The notes under the pieces were generated by a model. The model saw only the letters and a list, made by a program, of their open reading frames with translations, ran no database searches and was not told where the DNA came from. A DNA stretch of 64,000 bases from Escherichia coli (GTDB lineage: Bacteria > Pseudomonadota > Gammaproteobacteria > Enterobacterales > Enterobacteriaceae), in assembly GCF_009931435.1 (NCBI RefSeq), contig NZ_CP043414.1. One strand, given 5' to 3'. Below, piece by piece: positions 2,447-64,000 of this stretch. Made by a program: the position numbers and the translations under genes. Position 1 is the stretch's first letter. Each line of letters starts with the position of its first letter.

Positions 2447-5704
<3,258 letters not shown>

Positions 5705-5846
5705 CTAAATTGCCATGTTTTATCATCAATCTTGCCGCCTGATCTTAATCTGAAAAATCATCCAATACAGACAGATACCCATTACACCTCGGGTCATAAC
5801 CCGCAGGATCAACCGCATGTAAATTAAAAAAGAGCGTGTTGTCCTG

Positions 5847-6920
5847 ATGAAACAAAAAGAGCTATGGATTAACCAGATCAAAGGGTTATGTATTTGTCTT
5901 GTAGTGATTTATCACTCGGTCATTACCTTTTATCCGCATCTGACCACTTTTCAGCATCCGTTATCGGAAGTCCTGAGCAAATGCTGGATCTATTTCAATC
6001 TTTACCTTGCCCCCTTTCGTATGCCGGTTTTTTTCTTTATTTCTGGCTATTTGATTCGCCGCTATATCGATAGCGTGCCATGGGGAAATTGTCTCGATAA
6101 ACGCATCTGGAGCATCTTCTGGGTGCTGGCACTTTGGGGCGTAGTGCAGTGGCTGGCGATAAGTGCACTAAATCAGTGGCTGGCACCTGAGCGCAATTTA
6201 AGTAATGCCTCCAATGCCGCTTATGCCGATTCTACCGATGAGTTCCTGCACGGAATGATCACCGCCAGCACCAGCTTGTGGTATCTGTATGCTTTAATTG
6301 TCTATTTCGTGATATGTAAAATTTTTAACCGCCTGGCCCTGCCGTTATTTGTTCTGTTTGTACTGATGAGTGTGGCGGTTAATTTCGTACCCACACCGTG
6401 GTGGGGAATGAACAGTGTGATCCGCAATTTGCCTTATTACAGCCTTGGCGCATGGTTTGGCGCAACATTAATGACCTGTGTTAAAGAGGTGCCGTTGCGC
6501 CGCCATCTGCTGATGGCTTCTTTGCTGGCTGTTCTGGCGGTCGGTGCCTGGTTGTTTACTATCTCGCTGCTGTTGTCGCTGGTATCGATTGTGGTGATCA
6601 TGAAACTGTTTTATCAGTACGAGCAACGTTTCGGTATGCGCCCCACCAGCCTGCTGAATGTGATTGGCTCCAACACCATTGCTATCTACACCACCCATCG
6701 CATACTGGTAGAAATATTCAGCTTAAGCCTGATTCCGCAAATGAACGCGGCACGCTGGTCGCCGCAAGTCGAACTGACGCTCCTGCTGGTTTACCCCTTT
6801 GTCAGTTTGTTGATTTGTACTGTTGCGGGCTTGCTGGTAAGAAAACTTTCACAGCGCGCATTCAGCGATCTGTTGTTCTCCCCGCCTTCTCTGCCCGCTG
6901 CCGTCAGTTACTCCCGCTAA
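5847..6920 (+). CDS. ycfT: Inner-membrane acyltransferase-3 family protein YcfT
   Basis: 357-aa very hydrophobic multi-TM ORF at the position expected between lolC and mfd. Confidence 0.85.
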   Translation: MKQKELWINQIKGLCICLVVIYHSVITFYPHLTTFQHPLSEVLSKCWIYFNLYLAPFRMPVFFFISGYLIRRYIDSVPWGNCLDKRIWSIFWVLALWGVVQWLAISALNQWLAPERNLSNASNAAYADSTDEFLHGMITASTSLWYLYALIVYFVICKIFNRLALPLFVLFVLMSVAVNFVPTPWWGMNSVIRNLPYYSLGAWFGATLMTCVKEVPLRRHLLMASLLAVLAVGAWLFTISLLLSLVSIVVIMKLFYQYEQRFGMRPTSLLNVIGSNTIAIYTTHRILVEIFSLSLIPQMNAARWSPQVELTLLLVYPFVSLLICTVAGLLVRKLSQRAFSDLLFSPPSLPAAVSYSR

Positions 6921-10494: not shown

Positions 10495-10637
10495 TGGTAA
10501 ATCGGGGGCGTTTCTGCGCCCCCATATCCAACATTTACAAATTATTTGCACTTCCCTGCACTATCCGACACTGTCACCATCCATAATTCAGGCTTATCTG
10601 TTTATTACAATAACCTTATATTTATTATGGATTTTTG

Positions 10638-11600
10638 GTGATGATCAAAACGCGTTTTTCTCGCTGGCTAACGTTTTTTACGTTCGCCGCTGCCGTGGCG
10701 CTGGCGCTACCGGTAAAAGCCAACACCTGGCCGCTGCCGCCAGCAGGCAGTCGTCTGGTTGGCGAAAACAAATTTCATGTGGTGGAAAATGACGGTGGTT
10801 CTCTGGAAGCCATCGCCAAAAAATATAATGTCGGCTTTCTCGCTCTGTTACAGGCCAACCCCGGCGTTGATCCTTACGTGCCGCGCGCGGGTAGCGTGTT
10901 AACGATCCCGTTGCAAACCCTACTTCCAGATGCGCCGCGCGAAGGCATTGTGATCAATATTGCGGAACTGCGTCTCTATTACTACCCGCCGGGTAAAAAT
11001 TCGGTAACCGTGTATCCCATCGGCATTGGTCAGTTGGGTGGTGACACGCTGACACCGACAATGGTGACCACCGTTTCTGACAAGCGTGCAAACCCAACCT
11101 GGACGCCAACGGCAAACATTCGCGCGCGGTATAAGGCACAGGGAATTGAGTTGCCTGCGGTAGTTCCGGCTGGACCGGATAACCCAATGGGCCATCATGC
11201 GATTCGTCTGGCGGCCTATGGCGGTGTTTATTTGCTTCACGGTACGAACGCCGATTTCGGCATTGGCATGCGGGTAAGTTCTGGCTGTATTCGTCTGCGG
11301 GATGACGATATCAAAACACTCTTTAGCCAGGTCACCCCAGGTACCAAAGTGAATATCATCAACACCCCGATTAAAGTCTCTGCCGAACCAGACGGTGCGC
11401 GTCTGGTTGAAGTACATCAACCGCTGTCAGAGAAGATTGATGACGATCCGCAGCTGCTGCCAATTACACTGAATAGCGCAATGCAATCATTTAAAGATGC
11501 AGCGCAAACTGACGCTGAAGTGATGCAGCATGTGATGGATGTCCGTTCCGGGATGCCGGTGGATGTCCGCCGTCATCAAGTGAGCCCACAAACTTTGTAA
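10638..11600 (+). CDS. ldtC: L,D-transpeptidase LdtC (YcfS)
   Basis: Signal peptide, LysM-like N-terminal region and YkuD catalytic motif HGTN...SSGCIRL; start at GTG 10638 (320 aa) or ATG 10641. Confidence 0.88.
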   Translation: MMIKTRFSRWLTFFTFAAAVALALPVKANTWPLPPAGSRLVGENKFHVVENDGGSLEAIAKKYNVGFLALLQANPGVDPYVPRAGSVLTIPLQTLLPDAPREGIVINIAELRLYYYPPGKNSVTVYPIGIGQLGGDTLTPTMVTTVSDKRANPTWTPTANIRARYKAQGIELPAVVPAGPDNPMGHHAIRLAAYGGVYLLHGTNADFGIGMRVSSGCIRLRDDDIKTLFSQVTPGTKVNIINTPIKVSAEPDGARLVEVHQPLSEKIDDDPQLLPITLNSAMQSFKDAAQTDAEVMQHVMDVRSGMPVDVRRHQVSPQTL

Positions 11601-11611
11601 ATCCTGGATAA

Positions 11612-11650
11612 AAAAATCCCCGCGACACGGCATGTCGCGGGGAAAAAAAT
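11612..11650 (-). terminator. Intrinsic terminator for bhsA in the convergent ldtC/bhsA gap
   Basis: Hairpin ccccgcgacacggcatgtcgcgggg flanked by A7 on both sides of the + strand, giving a U-run after the hairpin on the minus transcript. Confidence 0.6.
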
Positions 11651-13540: not shown

Positions 13541-13631
<91 letters not shown>

Positions 13632-14946: not shown

Positions 14947-15208
14947 CGTGACCCCCTTAAATTTATTAACCAATTGTTAACTAATGGTTATTAATATAGC
15001 TCTTAATTAACAACAGGTTACAGCAATGAAAATGTTCTTCGTTATTGAGAATAACATGAATGGTGCATTGGTCATACCAAAATTGATGTTAATCAAGTTT
15101 TGTTGCTGAAAAGATAGGCTGATTTACCGGATGAGATCAAAAAATACAGCTTATTGTTTATTATTTAAACGAATTCAGGAGGGTGAGACGTATATGGAGG
15201 GCGTTTGG

Positions 15209-15339
15209 TAGGCCTGATAAGACGCGAGCGGCGTCGCATCAGGCACATTGCCAGTGTCGGATGCGGCGTGAACGCCCTATCCGACCTACAGAATTTACAG
15301 AATCTGGAACGCATCAGGTATCAGCAAGGTTACCTGATG
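15209..15339. repeat. REP/BIME cluster plus perfect 9-bp-arm inverted repeat downstream of ycfP
   Basis: taggcctgataagacgcgagcggcgtcgcatcaggc, gtcggatgcggcgtgaacgccctatccgacctac, and catcaggta-N10-tacctgatg. Confidence 0.7.
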
Positions 15340-19485: not shown

Positions 19486-21675
19486 ATGCTTTCAACACAA
19501 TTTAACAGGGATAATCAACATCAAACCACCTCCAAACCGTCACTACTCGCCGGTTGCATAGCACTGGCACTCTTACCTTCCGCCGCTTTTGCTGCACCAG
19601 CCACTGAAGAAACGGTGATTGTTGAGGGTTCCGCCACTACTCCAGTTGATGACGAAAATGATTACAGCGTAACGTCTACCTCTGCGGGTACCAAAATGCA
19701 GATGACTCAACGTGATATTCCTCAGTCGGTCACTATTGTTAGTCAGCAGCGGATGGAAGATCAGCAGTTACAAACGCTGGGCGAAGTGATGGAAAACACG
19801 CTGGGGATCAGCAAAAGTCAGGCGGATTCCGATCGTGCTCTTTATTATTCCCGCGGATTCCAGATCGATAACTATATGGTTGATGGTATCCCCACCTATT
19901 TTGAATCGCGCTGGAATCTGGGCGACGCACTTTCTGATATGGCACTGTTTGAACGCGTAGAAGTAGTGCGTGGCGCGACAGGACTCATGACCGGTACGGG
20001 TAATCCATCTGCGGCAATTAATATGGTTCGAAAACACGCGACCAGTCGTGAATTTAAAGGCGATGTCTCGGCAGAATACGGTAGCTGGAACAAAGAACGG
20101 TATGTAGCGGATTTACAAAGTCCACTCACCGAAGATGGTAAAATCCGCGCGCGAATTGTCGGCGGCTACCAGAATAACGACTCATGGCTGGACCGCTACA
20201 ACAGTGAAAAGACCTTCTTCTCCGGCATTGTCGATGCTGATTTAGGCGATCTTACGACGCTTTCAGGCGGTTACGAATATCAGCGCATTGATGTTAATAG
20301 CCCAACCTGGGGCGGTTTACCGCGCTGGAATACTGATGGCAGCAGCAACAGTTACGATCGCGCACGCAGTACCGCACCTGACTGGGCGTACAACGATAAA
20401 GAGATCAACAAGGTCTTTATGACCCTGAAGCAGCGGTTTGCTGATACCTGGCAAGCGACACTGAATGCCACCCACTCCGAAGTCGAATTTGACAGCAAAA
20501 TGATGTATGTCGATGCCTATGTAAACAAAGCGGATGGTATGCTGGTTGGGCCATACAGTAATTATGGACCTGGCTTTGATTATGTCGGCGGCACCGGTTG
20601 GAACAGCGGCAAACGTAAAGTTGATGCGCTGGATTTGTTCGCTGACGGTAGTTATGAATTGTTTGGTCGTCAGCACAATCTCATGTTTGGTGGCAGTTAC
20701 AGCAAACAAAACAATCGTTACTTCAGTTCATGGGCCAACATCTTCCCGGATGAAATTGGCAGTTTCTACAACTTTAATGGCAATTTCCCACAAACCGACT
20801 GGTCACCACAGAGTCTGGCGCAGGACGATACCACACATATGAAATCGTTATATGCTGCCACTCGTGTCACCCTTGCCGATCCGCTGCATCTGATCCTTGG
20901 CGCACGTTATACCAACTGGCGGGTTGATACGCTGACTTACAGCATGGAGAAAAACCACACCACGCCTTATGCTGGTCTGGTGTTTGACATTAATGACAAC
21001 TGGTCGACCTACGCCAGCTATACCTCTATTTTCCAGCCGCAAAATGATCGTGACAGTTCAGGCAAATATCTGGCTCCAATCACCGGTAACAACTACGAGC
21101 TGGGTCTGAAATCGGACTGGATGAATAGCCGTCTGACCACCACGTTAGCCATCTTCCGTATTGAGCAGGATAATGTCGCTCAGTCCACCGGTACACCTAT
21201 CCCCGGCAGCAACGGCGAAACCGCCTATAAAGCGGTGGATGGGACAGTCAGTAAAGGTGTGGAATTTGAACTCAACGGCGCAATTACCGACAACTGGCAG
21301 CTGACGTTTGGCGCAACGCGCTATATTGCAGAAGATAACGAAGGAAACGCCGTTAATCCTAATCTGCCACGCACCACGGTTAAAATGTTCACCAGCTATC
21401 GGTTACCTGTCATGCCAGAGTTGACGGTCGGCGGTGGTGTTAACTGGCAAAATCGCGTGTATACCGACACCGTGACACCGTATGGCACCTTCCGCGCCGA
21501 GCAAGGTAGCTACGCGCTGGTGGATCTCTTCACCCGCTACCAGGTGACGAAAAACTTCTCGTTACAGGGGAACGTCAATAACCTGTTCGACAAAACCTAC
21601 GATACCAACGTGGAAGGTTCTATCGTCTACGGCGCACCGCGTAATTTCAGCATTACCGGCACGTATCAATTCTGA
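19486..21675 (+). CDS. fhuE: TonB-dependent outer-membrane receptor for coprogen/ferric rhodotorulic acid FhuE
   Basis: 729-aa ORF with signal peptide and C-terminal ...TGTYQF terminal aromatic residue. Confidence 0.92.
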   Translation: MLSTQFNRDNQHQTTSKPSLLAGCIALALLPSAAFAAPATEETVIVEGSATTPVDDENDYSVTSTSAGTKMQMTQRDIPQSVTIVSQQRMEDQQLQTLGEVMENTLGISKSQADSDRALYYSRGFQIDNYMVDGIPTYFESRWNLGDALSDMALFERVEVVRGATGLMTGTGNPSAAINMVRKHATSREFKGDVSAEYGSWNKERYVADLQSPLTEDGKIRARIVGGYQNNDSWLDRYNSEKTFFSGIVDADLGDLTTLSGGYEYQRIDVNSPTWGGLPRWNTDGSSNSYDRARSTAPDWAYNDKEINKVFMTLKQRFADTWQATLNATHSEVEFDSKMMYVDAYVNKADGMLVGPYSNYGPGFDYVGGTGWNSGKRKVDALDLFADGSYELFGRQHNLMFGGSYSKQNNRYFSSWANIFPDEIGSFYNFNGNFPQTDWSPQSLAQDDTTHMKSLYAATRVTLADPLHLILGARYTNWRVDTLTYSMEKNHTTPYAGLVFDINDNWSTYASYTSIFQPQNDRDSSGKYLAPITGNNYELGLKSDWMNSRLTTTLAIFRIEQDNVAQSTGTPIPGSNGETAYKAVDGTVSKGVEFELNGAITDNWQLTFGATRYIAEDNEGNAVNPNLPRTTVKMFTSYRLPVMPELTVGGGVNWQNRVYTDTVTPYGTFRAEQGSYALVDLFTRYQVTKNFSLQGNVNNLFDKTYDTNVEGSIVYGAPRNFSITGTYQF

Positions 21676-21685
21676 ATAACACCTG

Positions 21686-21712
21686 TAAAAAAGGCAGCCA
21701 TCTGGCTGCCTT
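21686..21712. terminator. Intrinsic terminator in the fhuE/ptsG convergent gap (mainly for ptsG)
   Basis: Hairpin ggcagcca-tctg-gctgcc preceded by A7 on the + strand, i.e. a U-run after the hairpin on the minus transcript. Confidence 0.6.
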
Positions 21713-21734: not shown

Positions 21735-23168
21735 TTAGTGGTTACGGATGTACTCATCCATCTCGGTTTTCAGGTTATCGGATTTAGTACCGAAAATCGC
21801 CTGAACACCAGAACCAGCAACCACTACGCCCGCTGCGCCCAGTTTCTTCAGGCCAGCCTGATCCACTTTAGACACATCAGCAACGCTGACGCGCAGACGG
21901 GTAATACATGCGTCGAGGTTAGTGATGTTTTCTTTACCACCAAACGCAGCAACCAGAGCCGGTGCCATTTCGCTGGTACCTGTCGCTTTTGCATCATCAG
22001 TCGCGTCTTCACGACCCGGCGTTTTCAGATCCAGTGCTTTAATCAGCACGCGGAAGATGGTGTAGTAAACAATTGCATAACCGATACCGACGATCGGGAA
22101 CAGCCACAGTTTGCTGCTGTTACCAGACAGAACGATGAAGTCGATCAGACCGTGCGAGAACGACGTACCGTCACGCATCCCCAGAAGAATACAGATAGGG
22201 AATGCCAGGCCTGCCAGAATCGCGTGGATGATGTACAGGATCGGCGCAACGAACATGAAGGAGAACTCGATAGGCTCGGTGATACCGGTCAGGAACGAGG
22301 TCAGCGCCGCGGAGATCATGATACCGCCCACTTTCGCGCGGTTTTCCGGTTTAGCAGAGTGCCAGATAGCAATTGCGGCAGCTGGCAGACCGTACATTTT
22401 GAACAGGAAGCCGCCAGACAGTTTACCCGCAGTCGGGTCACCCGCCATATAACGCGGAATGTCGCCGTGGAAAACCTGACCTGCAGCGTTGGTGTATTCA
22501 CCAATCTGCATCTGGAAAGGTACGTTCCAGATGTGGTGCAGACCAAACGGTACCAGGCAACGTTCGATGAAACCGTAAATGCCAAACGCAACTACCGGGT
22601 TCTGGTAAGCAGCCCACTGAGAGAAGGTCTGGATTGCAGAACCAATAGGCGGCCAAATGAAGGACAGCACAACGCCAGTAAAGATGGCAGCCAGGCCTGA
22701 AATGATCGGCACAAAGCGTTTACCGGCAAAGAAGCCAAGATACTCAGGCAGCTTAATACGGTAGAAACGGTTAAACATGTACGCTGCGATCGCACCGGAG
22801 ATGATCCCCCCGAGTACGCCAGTATCCGCCAGGTGTTTAGAGGCGATTTCTTCAGCAGGTAAATGCAGTACCAGTGGCGCAACCACGGCCATGGTTTTAA
22901 CCATGATGCCATAGGCAACAACTGCGGCCAGCGCGGATACGCCATCGTTATTGGTAAAGCCGAGGGCGACACCGATCGCAAAAATCAGTGGCATGTTTGC
23001 AAAGACGGAACCGCCTGCTTCTGCCATAACATGCGATACAACGGCGGGCAGCCAGCTGAAATTCGCGGAACCGACGCCCAGCAGAATACCTGCGATAGGC
23101 AGTACGGATACCGGCAGCATCAGCGATTTACCGACCTTTTGCAGGTTAGCAAATGCATTCTTAAACAT
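21735..23168 (-). CDS. ptsG: Glucose-specific PTS enzyme IICB
   Basis: 477-aa [36 protein letters not shown]... with C-terminal EIIB motif [13 protein letters not shown]. Confidence 0.95.
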
Positions 23169-46350: not shown

Positions 46351-46384
<34 letters not shown>

Positions 46385-50167: not shown

Positions 50168-50827
50168 ATGCTGACAATAAAACGTAGCGTGGCGATCATT
50201 GCGATACTGTTCAGTCCGTTAAGTACGGCGAGCAATCTCACATCGCAGTTACAAACCTTTTTTAGCGCCCAGCTCGCGGGAGTAAGTGATGAGGTTCGTG
50301 TTTCTATTCGTACATCGCCCCATCTACTTCCGCCGTGCGAGCAACCACTGCTTTCGATAAGCAATAATTCCCGCCTGTGGGGAAATGTGAATGTGCTGGC
50401 ACGCTGCGGTAACGACAAACGATATTTGCAAGTCAATGTACAGGCCACAGGAAATTATGTGGTTGCCGCGATGCCCATTGTGCGGGGAGGAAAGCTGGAA
50501 GCTGGCAATGTAAAACTGAAACGCGGACGACTGGACACCTTGCCGCCGCGTACTGTGTTGGATATCAATCAACTTATTGATGCCGTTAGCCTGCGCGATC
50601 TATCACCCGAACAACCTATCCAATTAACCCAGTTGCGCCAGGCCTGGCGTGTAAAAGCGGGACAACGCGTCAACGTGATCGCCAACGGTGATGGATTTAG
50701 CGCCAACGCTGAAGGTCAGGCGTTGAACAATGCTGCCGTCGCACAGAATGCGCGGGTGCGCATGGTATCGGGACAGGTGGTCAGCGGCGTTGTTGATGCA
50801 GATGGGAATATTCTTATAAACCTGTAA
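50168..50827 (+). CDS. flgA: Flagellar P-ring assembly chaperone
   Basis: 219-aa ORF with signal peptide. Confidence 0.9.
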   Translation: MLTIKRSVAIIAILFSPLSTASNLTSQLQTFFSAQLAGVSDEVRVSIRTSPHLLPPCEQPLLSISNNSRLWGNVNVLARCGNDKRYLQVNVQATGNYVVAAMPIVRGGKLEAGNVKLKRGRLDTLPPRTVLDINQLIDAVSLRDLSPEQPIQLTQLRQAWRVKAGQRVNVIANGDGFSANAEGQALNNAAVAQNARVRMVSGQVVSGVVDADGNILINL

Positions 50828-50831
50828 GCTG

Positions 50832-50858
50832 TTAAAGATTACCCGACCCATGCCGATA
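50832..50858 (+). promoter_or_regulatory. sigma28 (FliA) class 3 promoter for flgMN
   Basis: TAAAGATT-N11-GCCGATAA: 7/8 match at -35, perfect -10, exact 11-nt spacer, about 45 nt upstream of the flgM ATG. Confidence 0.75.
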
Positions 50859-50902
50859 AATAAGCAACACATGATAAAAGCGCCCTCAATGAGGAATAAA
50901 CC

Positions 50903-51196
50903 ATGAGTATTGACCGCACTTCACCTCTGAAGCCCGTAAGCACCGTTCAACCGCGTGAAACCACTGACGCGCCGGTAACGAATACCCGGGCGGCAAAAAC
51001 AACCGCCGCCACCAGCACCAGTGTGACGTTAAGCGACGCGCAAGCAAAACTAATGCAACCCGGCAGCAGTGATATCAATCTTGAACGTGTCGAAGCGTTA
51101 AAACTGGCGATTCGTAACGGTGAACTAAAAATGGACACCGGCAAAATTGCCGATGCGCTAATCAACGAAGCGCAGCAAGACTTGCAGAGTAACTGA
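50903..51196 (+). CDS. flgM: Anti-sigma-28 factor
   Basis: 97-aa [28 protein letters not shown]... Confidence 0.92.
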
Positions 51197-51200
51197 TCGT

Positions 51201-51617
51201 ATGACGCGTCTTGCAGAGATCCTCGACCAGATGTCCGCAGTGCTTAACGATCTCAAAACAGTAATGGATCAAGAGCAGCAACATCTCTCAATGGGGCAGA
51301 TCAACGGCAGCCAGTTGCAATGGATTACAGAACAAAAAAGCTCACTGCTGGCGACGTTGGATTACCTCGAACAGTTACGCAGAAAAGAACCCAATGCAGA
51401 AAATAGCGTTGATATTAGTCAACGTTGGCAGGAAATTACGGTGCAAACTCAGCAACTACGTCAAATGAATCAACATAATGGCTGGTTACTGGAAGGACAG
51501 ATTGAGCGCAATCAACAGGCGCTGGAAATGTTAAAACCGCATCAGGAACCGACGCTGTACGGGGCGAACGGTCAGACATCAATACCCCATCGCGGCAGTA
51601 AAAAGATTTCGATCTGA
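51201..51617 (+). CDS. flgN: Flagellar export chaperone for FlgK/FlgL
   Basis: 138-aa ORF starting 4 nt after the flgM stop. Confidence 0.9.
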   Translation: MTRLAEILDQMSAVLNDLKTVMDQEQQHLSMGQINGSQLQWITEQKSSLLATLDYLEQLRRKEPNAENSVDISQRWQEITVQTQQLRQMNQHNGWLLEGQIERNQQALEMLKPHQEPTLYGANGQTSIPHRGSKKISI

Positions 51618-51626
51618 AGATTATCT

Positions 51627-51647
51627 CCGGCCTGCAGTGCAGGCCGG
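51627..51647. terminator. Palindrome in the flgN/murJ convergent gap, possible bidirectional terminator
   Basis: Near-perfect palindrome ccggcctgca-g-tgcaggccgg; no adjacent T/U run on either strand, so the function is uncertain. Confidence 0.35.
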
Positions 51648-51656
51648 AATGCATTG

Positions 51657-53279
<1,623 letters not shown>

Positions 53280-62558: not shown

Positions 62559-63134
62559 ATGAAAAAAAGCCTGCTTGGTTTAACCTTCGCTTCCTTGATG
62601 TTCTCTGCGGGTTCAGCGGTTGCCGCCGATTACAAAATTGACAAAGAAGGTCAGCACGCCTTTGTTAACTTCCGCATCCAGCATCTTGGCTATAGCTGGT
62701 TATATGGCACCTTTAAAGATTTCGACGGTACTTTTACCTTTGATGAAAAAAATCCCGCTGCTGATAAAGTGAATGTGACAATTAACACCACCAGCGTCGA
62801 TACTAATCACGCCGAACGCGATAAACATCTTCGCAGTGCAGATTTCCTCAATACCGCAAAATATCCACAGGCAACATTCACCTCCACCAGCGTGAAGAAA
62901 GACGGTGACGAACTGGATATTACCGGCGATCTGACGCTGAACGGGGTCACCAAACCCGTCACGCTGGAAGCGAAATTAATTGGTCAGGGCGACGACCCGT
63001 GGGGCGGTAAACGTGCAGGCTTTGAGGCCGAAGGCAAAATTAAGCTCAAAGACTTCAATATCAAGACAGATTTAGGTCCAGCTTCTCAGGAAGTGGACCT
63101 GATTATTTCAGTGGAAGGCGTACAGCAGAAGTAA
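62559..63134 (+). CDS. yceI: Periplasmic YceI-family (polyisoprenoid-binding) protein
   Basis: 191-aa ORF with signal peptide [22 protein letters not shown]; starts 4 nt after the yceJ stop. Confidence 0.9.
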
Positions 63135-63146
63135 GCGTGAAATGTT

Positions 63147-63167
63147 GCCGGATGACACGCATCCGGC
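63147..63167. terminator. Hairpin in the yceI/yceA convergent gap, candidate terminator
   Basis: Inverted repeat gccggatg-acacg-catccggc followed by an AT-rich stretch. Confidence 0.4.
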
Positions 63168-63175
63168 AATGATAT

Positions 63176-64000
63176 TTATTCTGTTGGATCAGGAATGCCC
63201 AGTGTTGTATTCAGACGTCCACGAGACTTATTAAAGATCTTATTGCCATTTTCACGTCCTGCCCGACGGCGTCGCTGTTCTTCTGGCGGTAACGCGCTTT
63301 CTTCGCAGCAAATCTCACTGCAACAACCTTTGTATTTTTCTGCACATACTGGACACTGAATAAACAGCAGGTGGCAGCCATCATTTTTACAGTTGGTATG
63401 GCTGTCGCACGGCGCACCGCACTGGTGGCAATGCGCGATAATCTCATCAGATATACGTTCGCCCATCCGCTCGTCAAACACAAAATTTTTGCCAATAAAA
63501 CGCACCGGTAAGCCCTGCTCGCGCGCCTTACGGGCGTATTCAATAATTCCGCCTTCGATATGCCAGACTTTATTGAATCCGTTATGTTTCATCCAGGCAC
63601 TGGCCTTTTCACAACGAATGCCGCCGGTGCAGTACATAACGATTTTTTTATCTTTATGTTCCTGCATCATCTCGACTGCTTTTGGCAGCTGCTCACGGAA
63701 GGTATCTGCCGGAATTTCCAGCGCGTTTTCAAAGTGCCCCACTTCATACTCATAATGATTACGCATGTCGATAAACAGAGCATCGGGATCGTCAAGCATG
63801 GCGTTCACTTCTGCCGCTTGCAGATACTCACCAACATTGCTGGCATCAAAGTGAGGATCGTCAATACCGTCGGCTACGATGCGATCGCGCACCTTCATGC
63901 GCAGTACCCAGAAGGATTTCCCGTCATCATCCAACGCGATGTTCAGGCGTAAGCCATCTAAAGCCGGGTCGAAGCCGTATAGCTGTGCGCGAAATGTTTC
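63176..64000 (-). CDS. trhO: tRNA uridine(34) hydroxylase TrhO / YceA (rhodanese-domain protein), C-terminal about 275 aa; N-terminus outside window
   Basis: Minus-strand frame is open to the window edge (...[33 protein letters not shown]...); rhodanese active site [12 protein letters not shown] and Cys-rich C-terminus. Confidence 0.85.

Follow-up and report, generated by a model that had tools for sequence, protein, structure and literature searches.

The flgN-murJ palindrome of Escherichia: most likely the core of a trimmed REP pair and probably a shared protective 3' hairpin

In the 64,000-nt stretch of E. coli DNA considered here (the window), flgN and murJ run towards each other and are separated by a short spacer with a palindrome at its center (Table 1). 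Gene names come from the RefSeq annotation of E. coli 2017-02-2CC, which matches the window with 100% identity over 501 nt, and from that of K-12 (95% identity). An earlier note on this DNA, made from the sequence alone, had given the spacer, the names of the two genes, their convergent orientation, and the palindrome between them, all of which can be found in the sequence and in the RefSeq annotation. The coordinates it attached to the palindrome, 51618-51656, hold for the spacer as a whole; the palindrome proper is confined to 51626-51648. Nor is the palindrome almost perfect, as had been said. It is perfect, the central base of an odd palindrome being unpairable by definition. The base of the stem lies exactly 8 nt from the stop codon of flgN and the same distance from that of murJ. 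Three open reading frames that overlap the spacer (51436-51654 and 51572-51727 on the - strand, 51637-51918 on the + strand) were rejected as antisense-strand artefacts of the real genes.

Table 1. Features at the junction of flgN and murJ (window coordinates)
Feature	Coordinates	Strand	Remarks
flgN	51201-51617	+	Flagellar export chaperone; stop TGA at 51615-51617; name from RefSeq annotation
Antisense-flgN stretch crossed by murJ read-through before the Rho stop	51250-51625	-	Approximate mapping from K-12
flgN-murJ spacer	51618-51656	both	39 nt; flanking genes convergent
Palindrome TCCGGCCTGCA-g-TGCAGGCCGGA	51626-51648	both	Perfect, odd, 11+1+11 nt
Stem arms and loop	51626-51635 with 51639-51648; loop 51636-51638	either	10 bp and 3-nt loop
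Left arm TCCGGCCTGC	51626-51635	+	Matches the REP 3' tail; preceded by TTATC, as in REP
Right arm, also TCCGGCCTGC	51639-51648	-	Equals the tail of a second, inverted REP
C-rich, G-poor tract, antisense to murJ and untranslated	51649-51848	+	66 C, 39 G; candidate rut region
murJ	51657-53192	-	Lipid II flippase, 511 aa; stop TAA at 51657-51659; name from RefSeq annotation

The free energy of the RNA fold had been proposed as a check, and it speaks for a stable hairpin on both strands: a 10-bp stem and 3-nt loop at -20.8 kcal/mol on each, with z-scores of -4.1 and -4.9 and no shuffled sequence out of 200 folding equally well. With 8 G-C pairs in its 10-bp stem, the hairpin has the GC-rich stem-loop of an intrinsic terminator. 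What is missing is the U-rich tract, some 7 to 8 nt directly after the stem, where the sequence reads AAUGCAUU on the + strand and GAUAAUCU on the - strand. The tail after the stem, AATGCATTG (+) or GATAATCTT (-), carries a T-run on neither strand, which the earlier note had also observed. A scan for consensus terminators and promoters was silent at the palindrome, though it called six weaker hairpins nearby, and an Rfam scan of 50800-52400 (E <= 10) returned two chance matches and none at the palindrome.

Every E. coli genome with the locus, 5,425 in all, keeps the palindrome. Across the same 5,425 genomes, a 51-nt query found at most two places per genome, which we take for self-matches of the locus, one on each strand, the palindrome being single-copy; the window contains no second copy of the palindrome in its 21-nt form. 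For a wider view, eight Escherichia sequences were compared: the window, K-12, two cryptic-clade strains, E. albertii, E. whittamii, and two others. The length of the spacer (39 nt) and the 8 nt from stop codon to stem are constant throughout. Variable columns number 0 of 20 in the stem, 2 of 3 in the loop, and 9 of 16 in the flanks, so that the stem stands apart from loop and flanks taken together (11 of 19, or 58%; Fisher p = 4.5e-5). The loop occurs as AGT, ACT, AAT, and GAT. Because the loop varies, the fixed part is the 10 bp that can pair around 3 nt, and not the full 11+11 DNA palindrome. The stem shows no compensatory base change among the eight sequences, so conservation by itself is no proof of a role at the level of RNA. 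It may be, too, that a hairpin required on both strands is barred from passing through G-U intermediates, each of which would be a C-A mismatch on the other strand, and would for that reason be unusually rigid.

The flgN region was also retrieved from 61 genomes of other species, and the spacer was read in each. In Salmonella and Citrobacter the spacer is 70 to 91 nt long, and where an inverted pair of REP sequences is clear (Salmonella and most Citrobacter), it is 82 to 91 nt. The two REPs lie tail-to-tail, as in TGCCGGATGGCAGCGTTTCGCCTTATCCGGCCTAC-GGTACAGT-GTAGGCCGGATAAGCAAAGCGCCATCAGGCA, and begin 5 to 6 nt from the stop codons. When the spacers are aligned by MAFFT with the coding flanks as anchors, the arms of the Escherichia palindrome fall on the inner, or tail, halves of the two REPs, and the arm TCCGGCCTGC matches the REP tail, whose consensus is TCCGGCCTAC. 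The left junction is the cleaner of the two. GATTATC followed by TCCGGCCTGC in Escherichia is close to what remains of TGATT-GCCGGATGGCGGTGTGGCACCTT-ATCCGGCCTGC in C. amalonaticus when the 23 nt of GCCGGATGGCGGTGTGGCACCTT are taken out, Escherichia having one additional T. The right-hand junction is less clean. In position, then, the palindrome is orthologous to the REP pairs of Salmonella and Citrobacter, and it is most likely, to judge by the alignment, the core of a trimmed REP pair. By parsimony the direction of change would be from REP pair to palindrome. The relation to REP sequences is absent from the earlier note.

What the palindrome shares with REP, BIME, and REPIN elements is the tail TCCGGCCT(G/A)C in both arms, the TTATC before the left arm, the site occupied by the inverted REP pair in Salmonella and Citrobacter, and a place between convergent genes, near their stop codons. 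The similarity does not go beyond TTATC and some 10 nt in each arm. A full REP unit runs to about 35 nt, folds into an imperfect hairpin of its own, and ends in GTAG/CTAC; here about 11 of those 35 nt are left per REP, a tail of 10 to 11 nt plus TTATC that ends in GCAG and not in GTAG. Since the individual REP hairpins are gone, the end is GCAG, and the sequence is single-copy where REPs occur in many copies, the palindrome no longer qualifies as a REP. PMC3337134 presents REP pairs as a mobile unit (the REPIN) and single REPs as remnants of such pairs. By analogy, a remnant made of two tails may be regarded as a variation on the same theme. In the window there are 7 occurrences of the motif TYMGGCCTRC, where 0.96 would be expected; canonical REP tails account for 4 of them and the arms of the palindrome for 2. 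Canonical REP and BIME sequences of the window comprise a single REP (628-655), a tail-to-tail pair with a long spacer (13543-13630), a head-to-head Y/Z pair (15208-15289), and a single Z-type REP (46351-46384). The missing annotation of a REP at flgN-murJ is uninformative, as the RefSeq record of K-12 has no repeat feature at 5200-6000 either, where REP1 lies, and so probably leaves REPs out altogether.

Beyond Salmonella and Citrobacter, the spacer is occupied by hairpins of other descriptions. In Enterobacter, Leclercia, Lelliottia, and allies, there is a hairpin of the form AAAC-GGGGAGCACC...GGTGACTCCCC-TTTT, with an A-run upstream and a T-run downstream, by its sequence evidently a canonical intrinsic terminator. 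It resembles the Escherichia palindrome in position and in being a GC-rich hairpin, but it differs in having the T-run and the upstream A-run, and its sequence is unrelated. Other related genera likewise have a stable hairpin in the same spacer with a sequence unrelated to that of Escherichia. (Folds were compared across genera for their energies only, since minimum-energy folds reach into the flanks; T-runs were read directly.) Conservation had been proposed as a check, and its outcome is a stem invariant within Escherichia together with other genera that keep the hairpin and not the sequence. That a hairpin is kept with unrelated sequences points to selection on the hairpin as such. In Kluyvera, the spacer after flgN is 43 nt long and contains a hairpin GCGGGGCA...TGCCCCGC that also has no T-run, and U-less hairpins at this place are thus not unique to Escherichia. 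Two of the records consulted carry an enterobacterial flgN under unexpected names, CACSKA010000011.1 (Chryseobacterium sp. 18061) and NZ_JAGEMM010000094.1 (Microvirga antarctica), with 67% and 77% identity to E. coli FlgN, respectively. The Microvirga contig is 289 nt long at 1x coverage, and both cases are probably contamination or mislabelling.

These comparisons bear on two readings in which the hairpin plays no part at the 3' end of a message. The palindrome might be no more than what a decayed REP pair has left behind, with no function, and its ancestry agrees with that, as does the failure to detect a dominant 3' end (see below). A relic, however, would hardly show 0 of 20 stem positions changed across the genus while 58% of the neighboring noncoding positions have changed, nor would every related genus be expected to keep some stable hairpin at the position. 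A mere relic is accordingly very improbable. Alternatively, the palindrome might act as DNA, either as an operator for a dimeric protein or as a REP-like target at which gyrase or another REP-binding protein would remove supercoils between the convergent genes. BIMEs bind gyrase, IHF, and Pol I, and descent from REP lends the idea some color, as do the perfection of the palindrome, its strict conservation in sequence, and the lack of compensatory change. But the innermost A-T positions of the 11+11 arrangement vary and only the 10 pairable bp are fixed, as fits a hairpin; other genera retain the hairpin and not the sequence; and the outer REP halves are gone from a palindrome that is single-copy in each of the 5,425 E. 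coli genomes. The suggestion that this is a protein-bound element finds no support in a site whose center varies and whose sequence has been replaced in other genera with the hairpin kept, and we regard a DNA-level site as extremely unlikely.

The palindrome is not alone in the window. A count of perfect inverted repeats whose loop does not exceed 8 nt gives 3 with arms of 11 nt or longer, where 0.13 would be expected from dinucleotide shuffles, and 6 with arms of 10 nt or longer, where the expectation is 0.68. Palindromes of the flgN-murJ kind are about 20 times more common in the window than in shuffled sequence. Of the five others, two lie between convergent open reading frames (21691-21712 and 63145-63169) and a third (11617-11643) lies just past a gene. 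The repeat at 29151-29172 presumably stands directly after a gene as well. Because other repeats of the window adjoin the ends of genes, the flgN-murJ palindrome may be counted as one of a class of 3'-end hairpins.

Some of these repeats deserve description in their own right. The palindrome at 63145-63169, TTGCCGGATG-acacg-CATCCGGCAA, is perfect, without a U-tract, and set in a 41-nt spacer between convergent reading frames at 62559-63134 (+) and 63176-63934 (-). Its arms resemble REP heads (GCCGGATG), the parts that lie outermost when two REPs are joined tail-to-tail, and from its sequence it looks like the mirror case of the flgN-murJ element. The 10+2+10 palindrome at 21691-21712, AAGGCAGCC-at-c-TGGCTGCCTT, separates convergent reading frames at 19486-21675 (+) and 21735-23168 (-); an A-run upstream on the + strand provides a T-run for the - strand gene only. 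At 11617-11643 a GC-rich 11-bp hairpin, TCCCCGCGACA-cggca-TGTCGCGGGGA, stands between two A7 runs of the + strand. It is terminator-like for the - strand only, yet the gene next to it upstream, 10635-11600, is a + strand gene. Finally, a perfect 11+4+11 palindrome at 33331-33356, CAGTGCCTGCA-atgc-TGCAGGCACTG, lies inside or at the 5' edge of the reading frame 32344-33414 (-).

If the hairpin acts in RNA, one way in which it might do so is by tuning translation: a ribosome at the stop codon would meet or melt the base of the hairpin and stall, and the yield of FlgN, of MurJ, or of both would fall. Liang, Rudd, and Deutscher are said to have reported in Mol Cell in 2015 that REPs within about 15 nt of a stop codon stall ribosomes and lower yield. 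By analogy, the 8 nt from each stop codon to the stem, constant across Escherichia, would be suitable, and the REPs of Salmonella and Citrobacter are similarly placed, 5 to 6 nt from the stops. The spacing may, however, reflect nothing more than a compact spacer. Tuning of this sort is distinctly unlikely to be what the hairpin is for, although it is compatible with the protective role favored below and does not exclude it.

The fate of transcripts at this junction can be judged on the murJ strand from published data. For K-12, Adams et al. (2021, PMC7815308, Supplementary file 2) call a region of Rho-dependent termination on the strand antisense to flgN, at 1129747 (+), about 370 nt past the stop codon of murJ (K-12 1129374). 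Its Rho score is 4.94 (p = 6e-9), and reads in the 800 nt upstream and downstream number 72 and 16 in untreated cells and 142 and 156 with bicyclomycin (PMC7815308). From these counts, the ratio of downstream to upstream reads rises from 0.22 to 1.10 when Rho is inhibited. If the hairpin freed half of the polymerases, a ratio of about 0.65 would be expected; the observed 1.1 means that, as an intrinsic terminator, it is inefficient on the murJ strand. Rho-independent termination is thus contradicted for the murJ strand in K-12 only, and this read-through and the lack of a U-tract on either strand uphold the view that the palindrome is not a classical intrinsic terminator. A second Rho region has been called inside essential murJ, at K-12 NC_000913.3 1128462 (+), near window position 52570 on the - strand, with 217 and 42 reads in untreated cells, 152 and 119 with bicyclomycin, and a Rho score of 4.04 (PMC7815308, Supplementary file 2).

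On the flgN strand, no Rho termination region antisense to murJ has been called (PMC7815308, Supplementary file 2), and the indications are compositional. Over the first 200 nt past the hairpin, C/G is 1.69, in the 99th percentile of the 200-nt windows of the stretch analysed, and the tract has the appearance of a loading (rut) site for Rho, so far as its base composition can suggest. Downstream C/G on the murJ strand is weak, at 1.14. The possibility that the element is Rho-dependent, raised earlier, is hence borne out for the murJ strand by the K-12 record, while for the flgN strand composition points the same way. Even so, Rho acts downstream of the hairpin, whose part is more readily understood as protection or pausing than as termination.

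Term-seq had been named as a further check. No dominant 3' end near the hairpin, K-12 11293xx-11295xx, is listed on either strand in any of three conditions (PMC7815308, Supplementary files 1 and 3), an absence that is weak evidence, since the list gives only about 1000 ends for each condition and the expression of both genes is modest; as to read-through, it is complete on the murJ strand with bicyclomycin. The TERMITe supplements have no entry for the hairpin. SMRT-Cappable-seq gives no operon with b1069 or b1070, only rimJ-yceH-yceM, which ends at 1127817, and a literature search for flgN together with REP or with bicyclomycin produced nothing relevant. In ExcludonFinder, murJ-flgN is one of the convergent pairs whose transcripts overlap in half or more of 58 RNA-seq samples (PMC12288877), which agrees either with read-through or with a shared hairpin.

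Overlapping transcripts might also suggest that the hairpin is an overlapping bidirectional terminator (Ju et al. 2019), where polymerase from either gene pauses at a set point, the hairpin, the converging polymerase collides with it, and trailing ones dislodge the complex, with no U-tract needed. This model, with its need for a stem-loop, has been described for convergent pairs of E. coli (bioRxiv 10.1101/2022.10.23.513370), and murJ-flgN offers a convergent pair, a short spacer, a single symmetric hairpin common to both strands, and a place in the list of overlapping transcript ends (PMC12288877). Against it, murJ and flgN are not highly expressed together, and when Rho is inhibited, transcription on the murJ strand goes on at full density for more than 1 kb, so that collisions are insufficient in those conditions. 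The bidirectional terminators of that work are reported to carry A- and U-tracts around the stem, and such flanking tracts are absent here. Termination by collision therefore seems unlikely.

A closer parallel is found in the stem-loops of Dar & Sorek (2018, PMC6061677). According to that study, the Rho-dependent transcripts of E. coli have their steady-state ends directly behind stable stem-loops without a U-tract, to which the RNA is trimmed back by PNPase and RNase II; rut sites follow immediately downstream, and about a quarter of such protective stem-loops are REPs. The flgN-murJ hairpin is likewise stable and GC-rich, comes just past the coding sequence, and has neither a U-tract nor an A-tract upstream. 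C exceeds G downstream on the + (flgN) strand, with the C/G of 1.69 given above, and on the murJ strand read-through is sensitive to bicyclomycin, with the Rho score of 4.94. There are two differences: a single hairpin serves two convergent genes here, and it is for the transcripts of that study that a steady-state 3' end beside the stem is documented. In every feature tested other than the 3' end itself, the hairpin fits the class.

The preferred reading, which we consider probable, is that the palindrome is a trimmed REP-pair core acting as a shared protective 3' hairpin for the Rho-terminated mRNAs of flgN and murJ. The ancestor of Escherichia, Salmonella, and Citrobacter would have carried an inverted REP pair (BIME/REPIN) in the flgN-murJ spacer. 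In Escherichia, both outer REP halves would have been lost, leaving two inner tails to pair with each other, and the resulting perfect palindrome would give the same stable hairpin to the 3' end of the flgN mRNA and to that of the murJ mRNA. Because there is no U-tract, the hairpin alone would free no RNA polymerase, which would continue into the antisense of the opposite gene, where the untranslated RNA would be terminated by Rho, as is seen on the murJ strand in K-12. The RNA would then be trimmed by 3'-to-5' exonucleases back to the hairpin, and the hairpin would protect the message. On the best reading, its function is that of a two-way protective or pausing hairpin at the 3' end, an element of a known kind.

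There is a further possibility, in which the palindrome is not a passive 3' cap but an active device coupling the two genes, either as a point of collision and pausing or as a hairpin that stalls ribosomes. If this were true, the expression of flagellar flgMN and of murJ, encoding the essential lipid II flippase, would interfere with each other in the manner of an excludon. We think it very unlikely.

Taken as a protective hairpin, the element belongs to a known class in which it is nothing out of the ordinary, and a trimmed REP pair would give it a tidy origin. It has little importance beyond annotation, a hairpin without a T-run being the common sort of stem-loop that caps Rho-terminated messages. 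Those who engineer the locus or measure expression there may nonetheless wish to bear in mind that murJ is transcribed antisense into flgN as far as the Rho stop. For the enterobacteria, the spacer would offer a clean, small example of a single site swapping its 3'-end device in the course of evolution, from an intrinsic terminator (of the Enterobacter type) to a REP pair (Salmonella and Citrobacter) to a 23-nt palindrome of REP tails (Escherichia).
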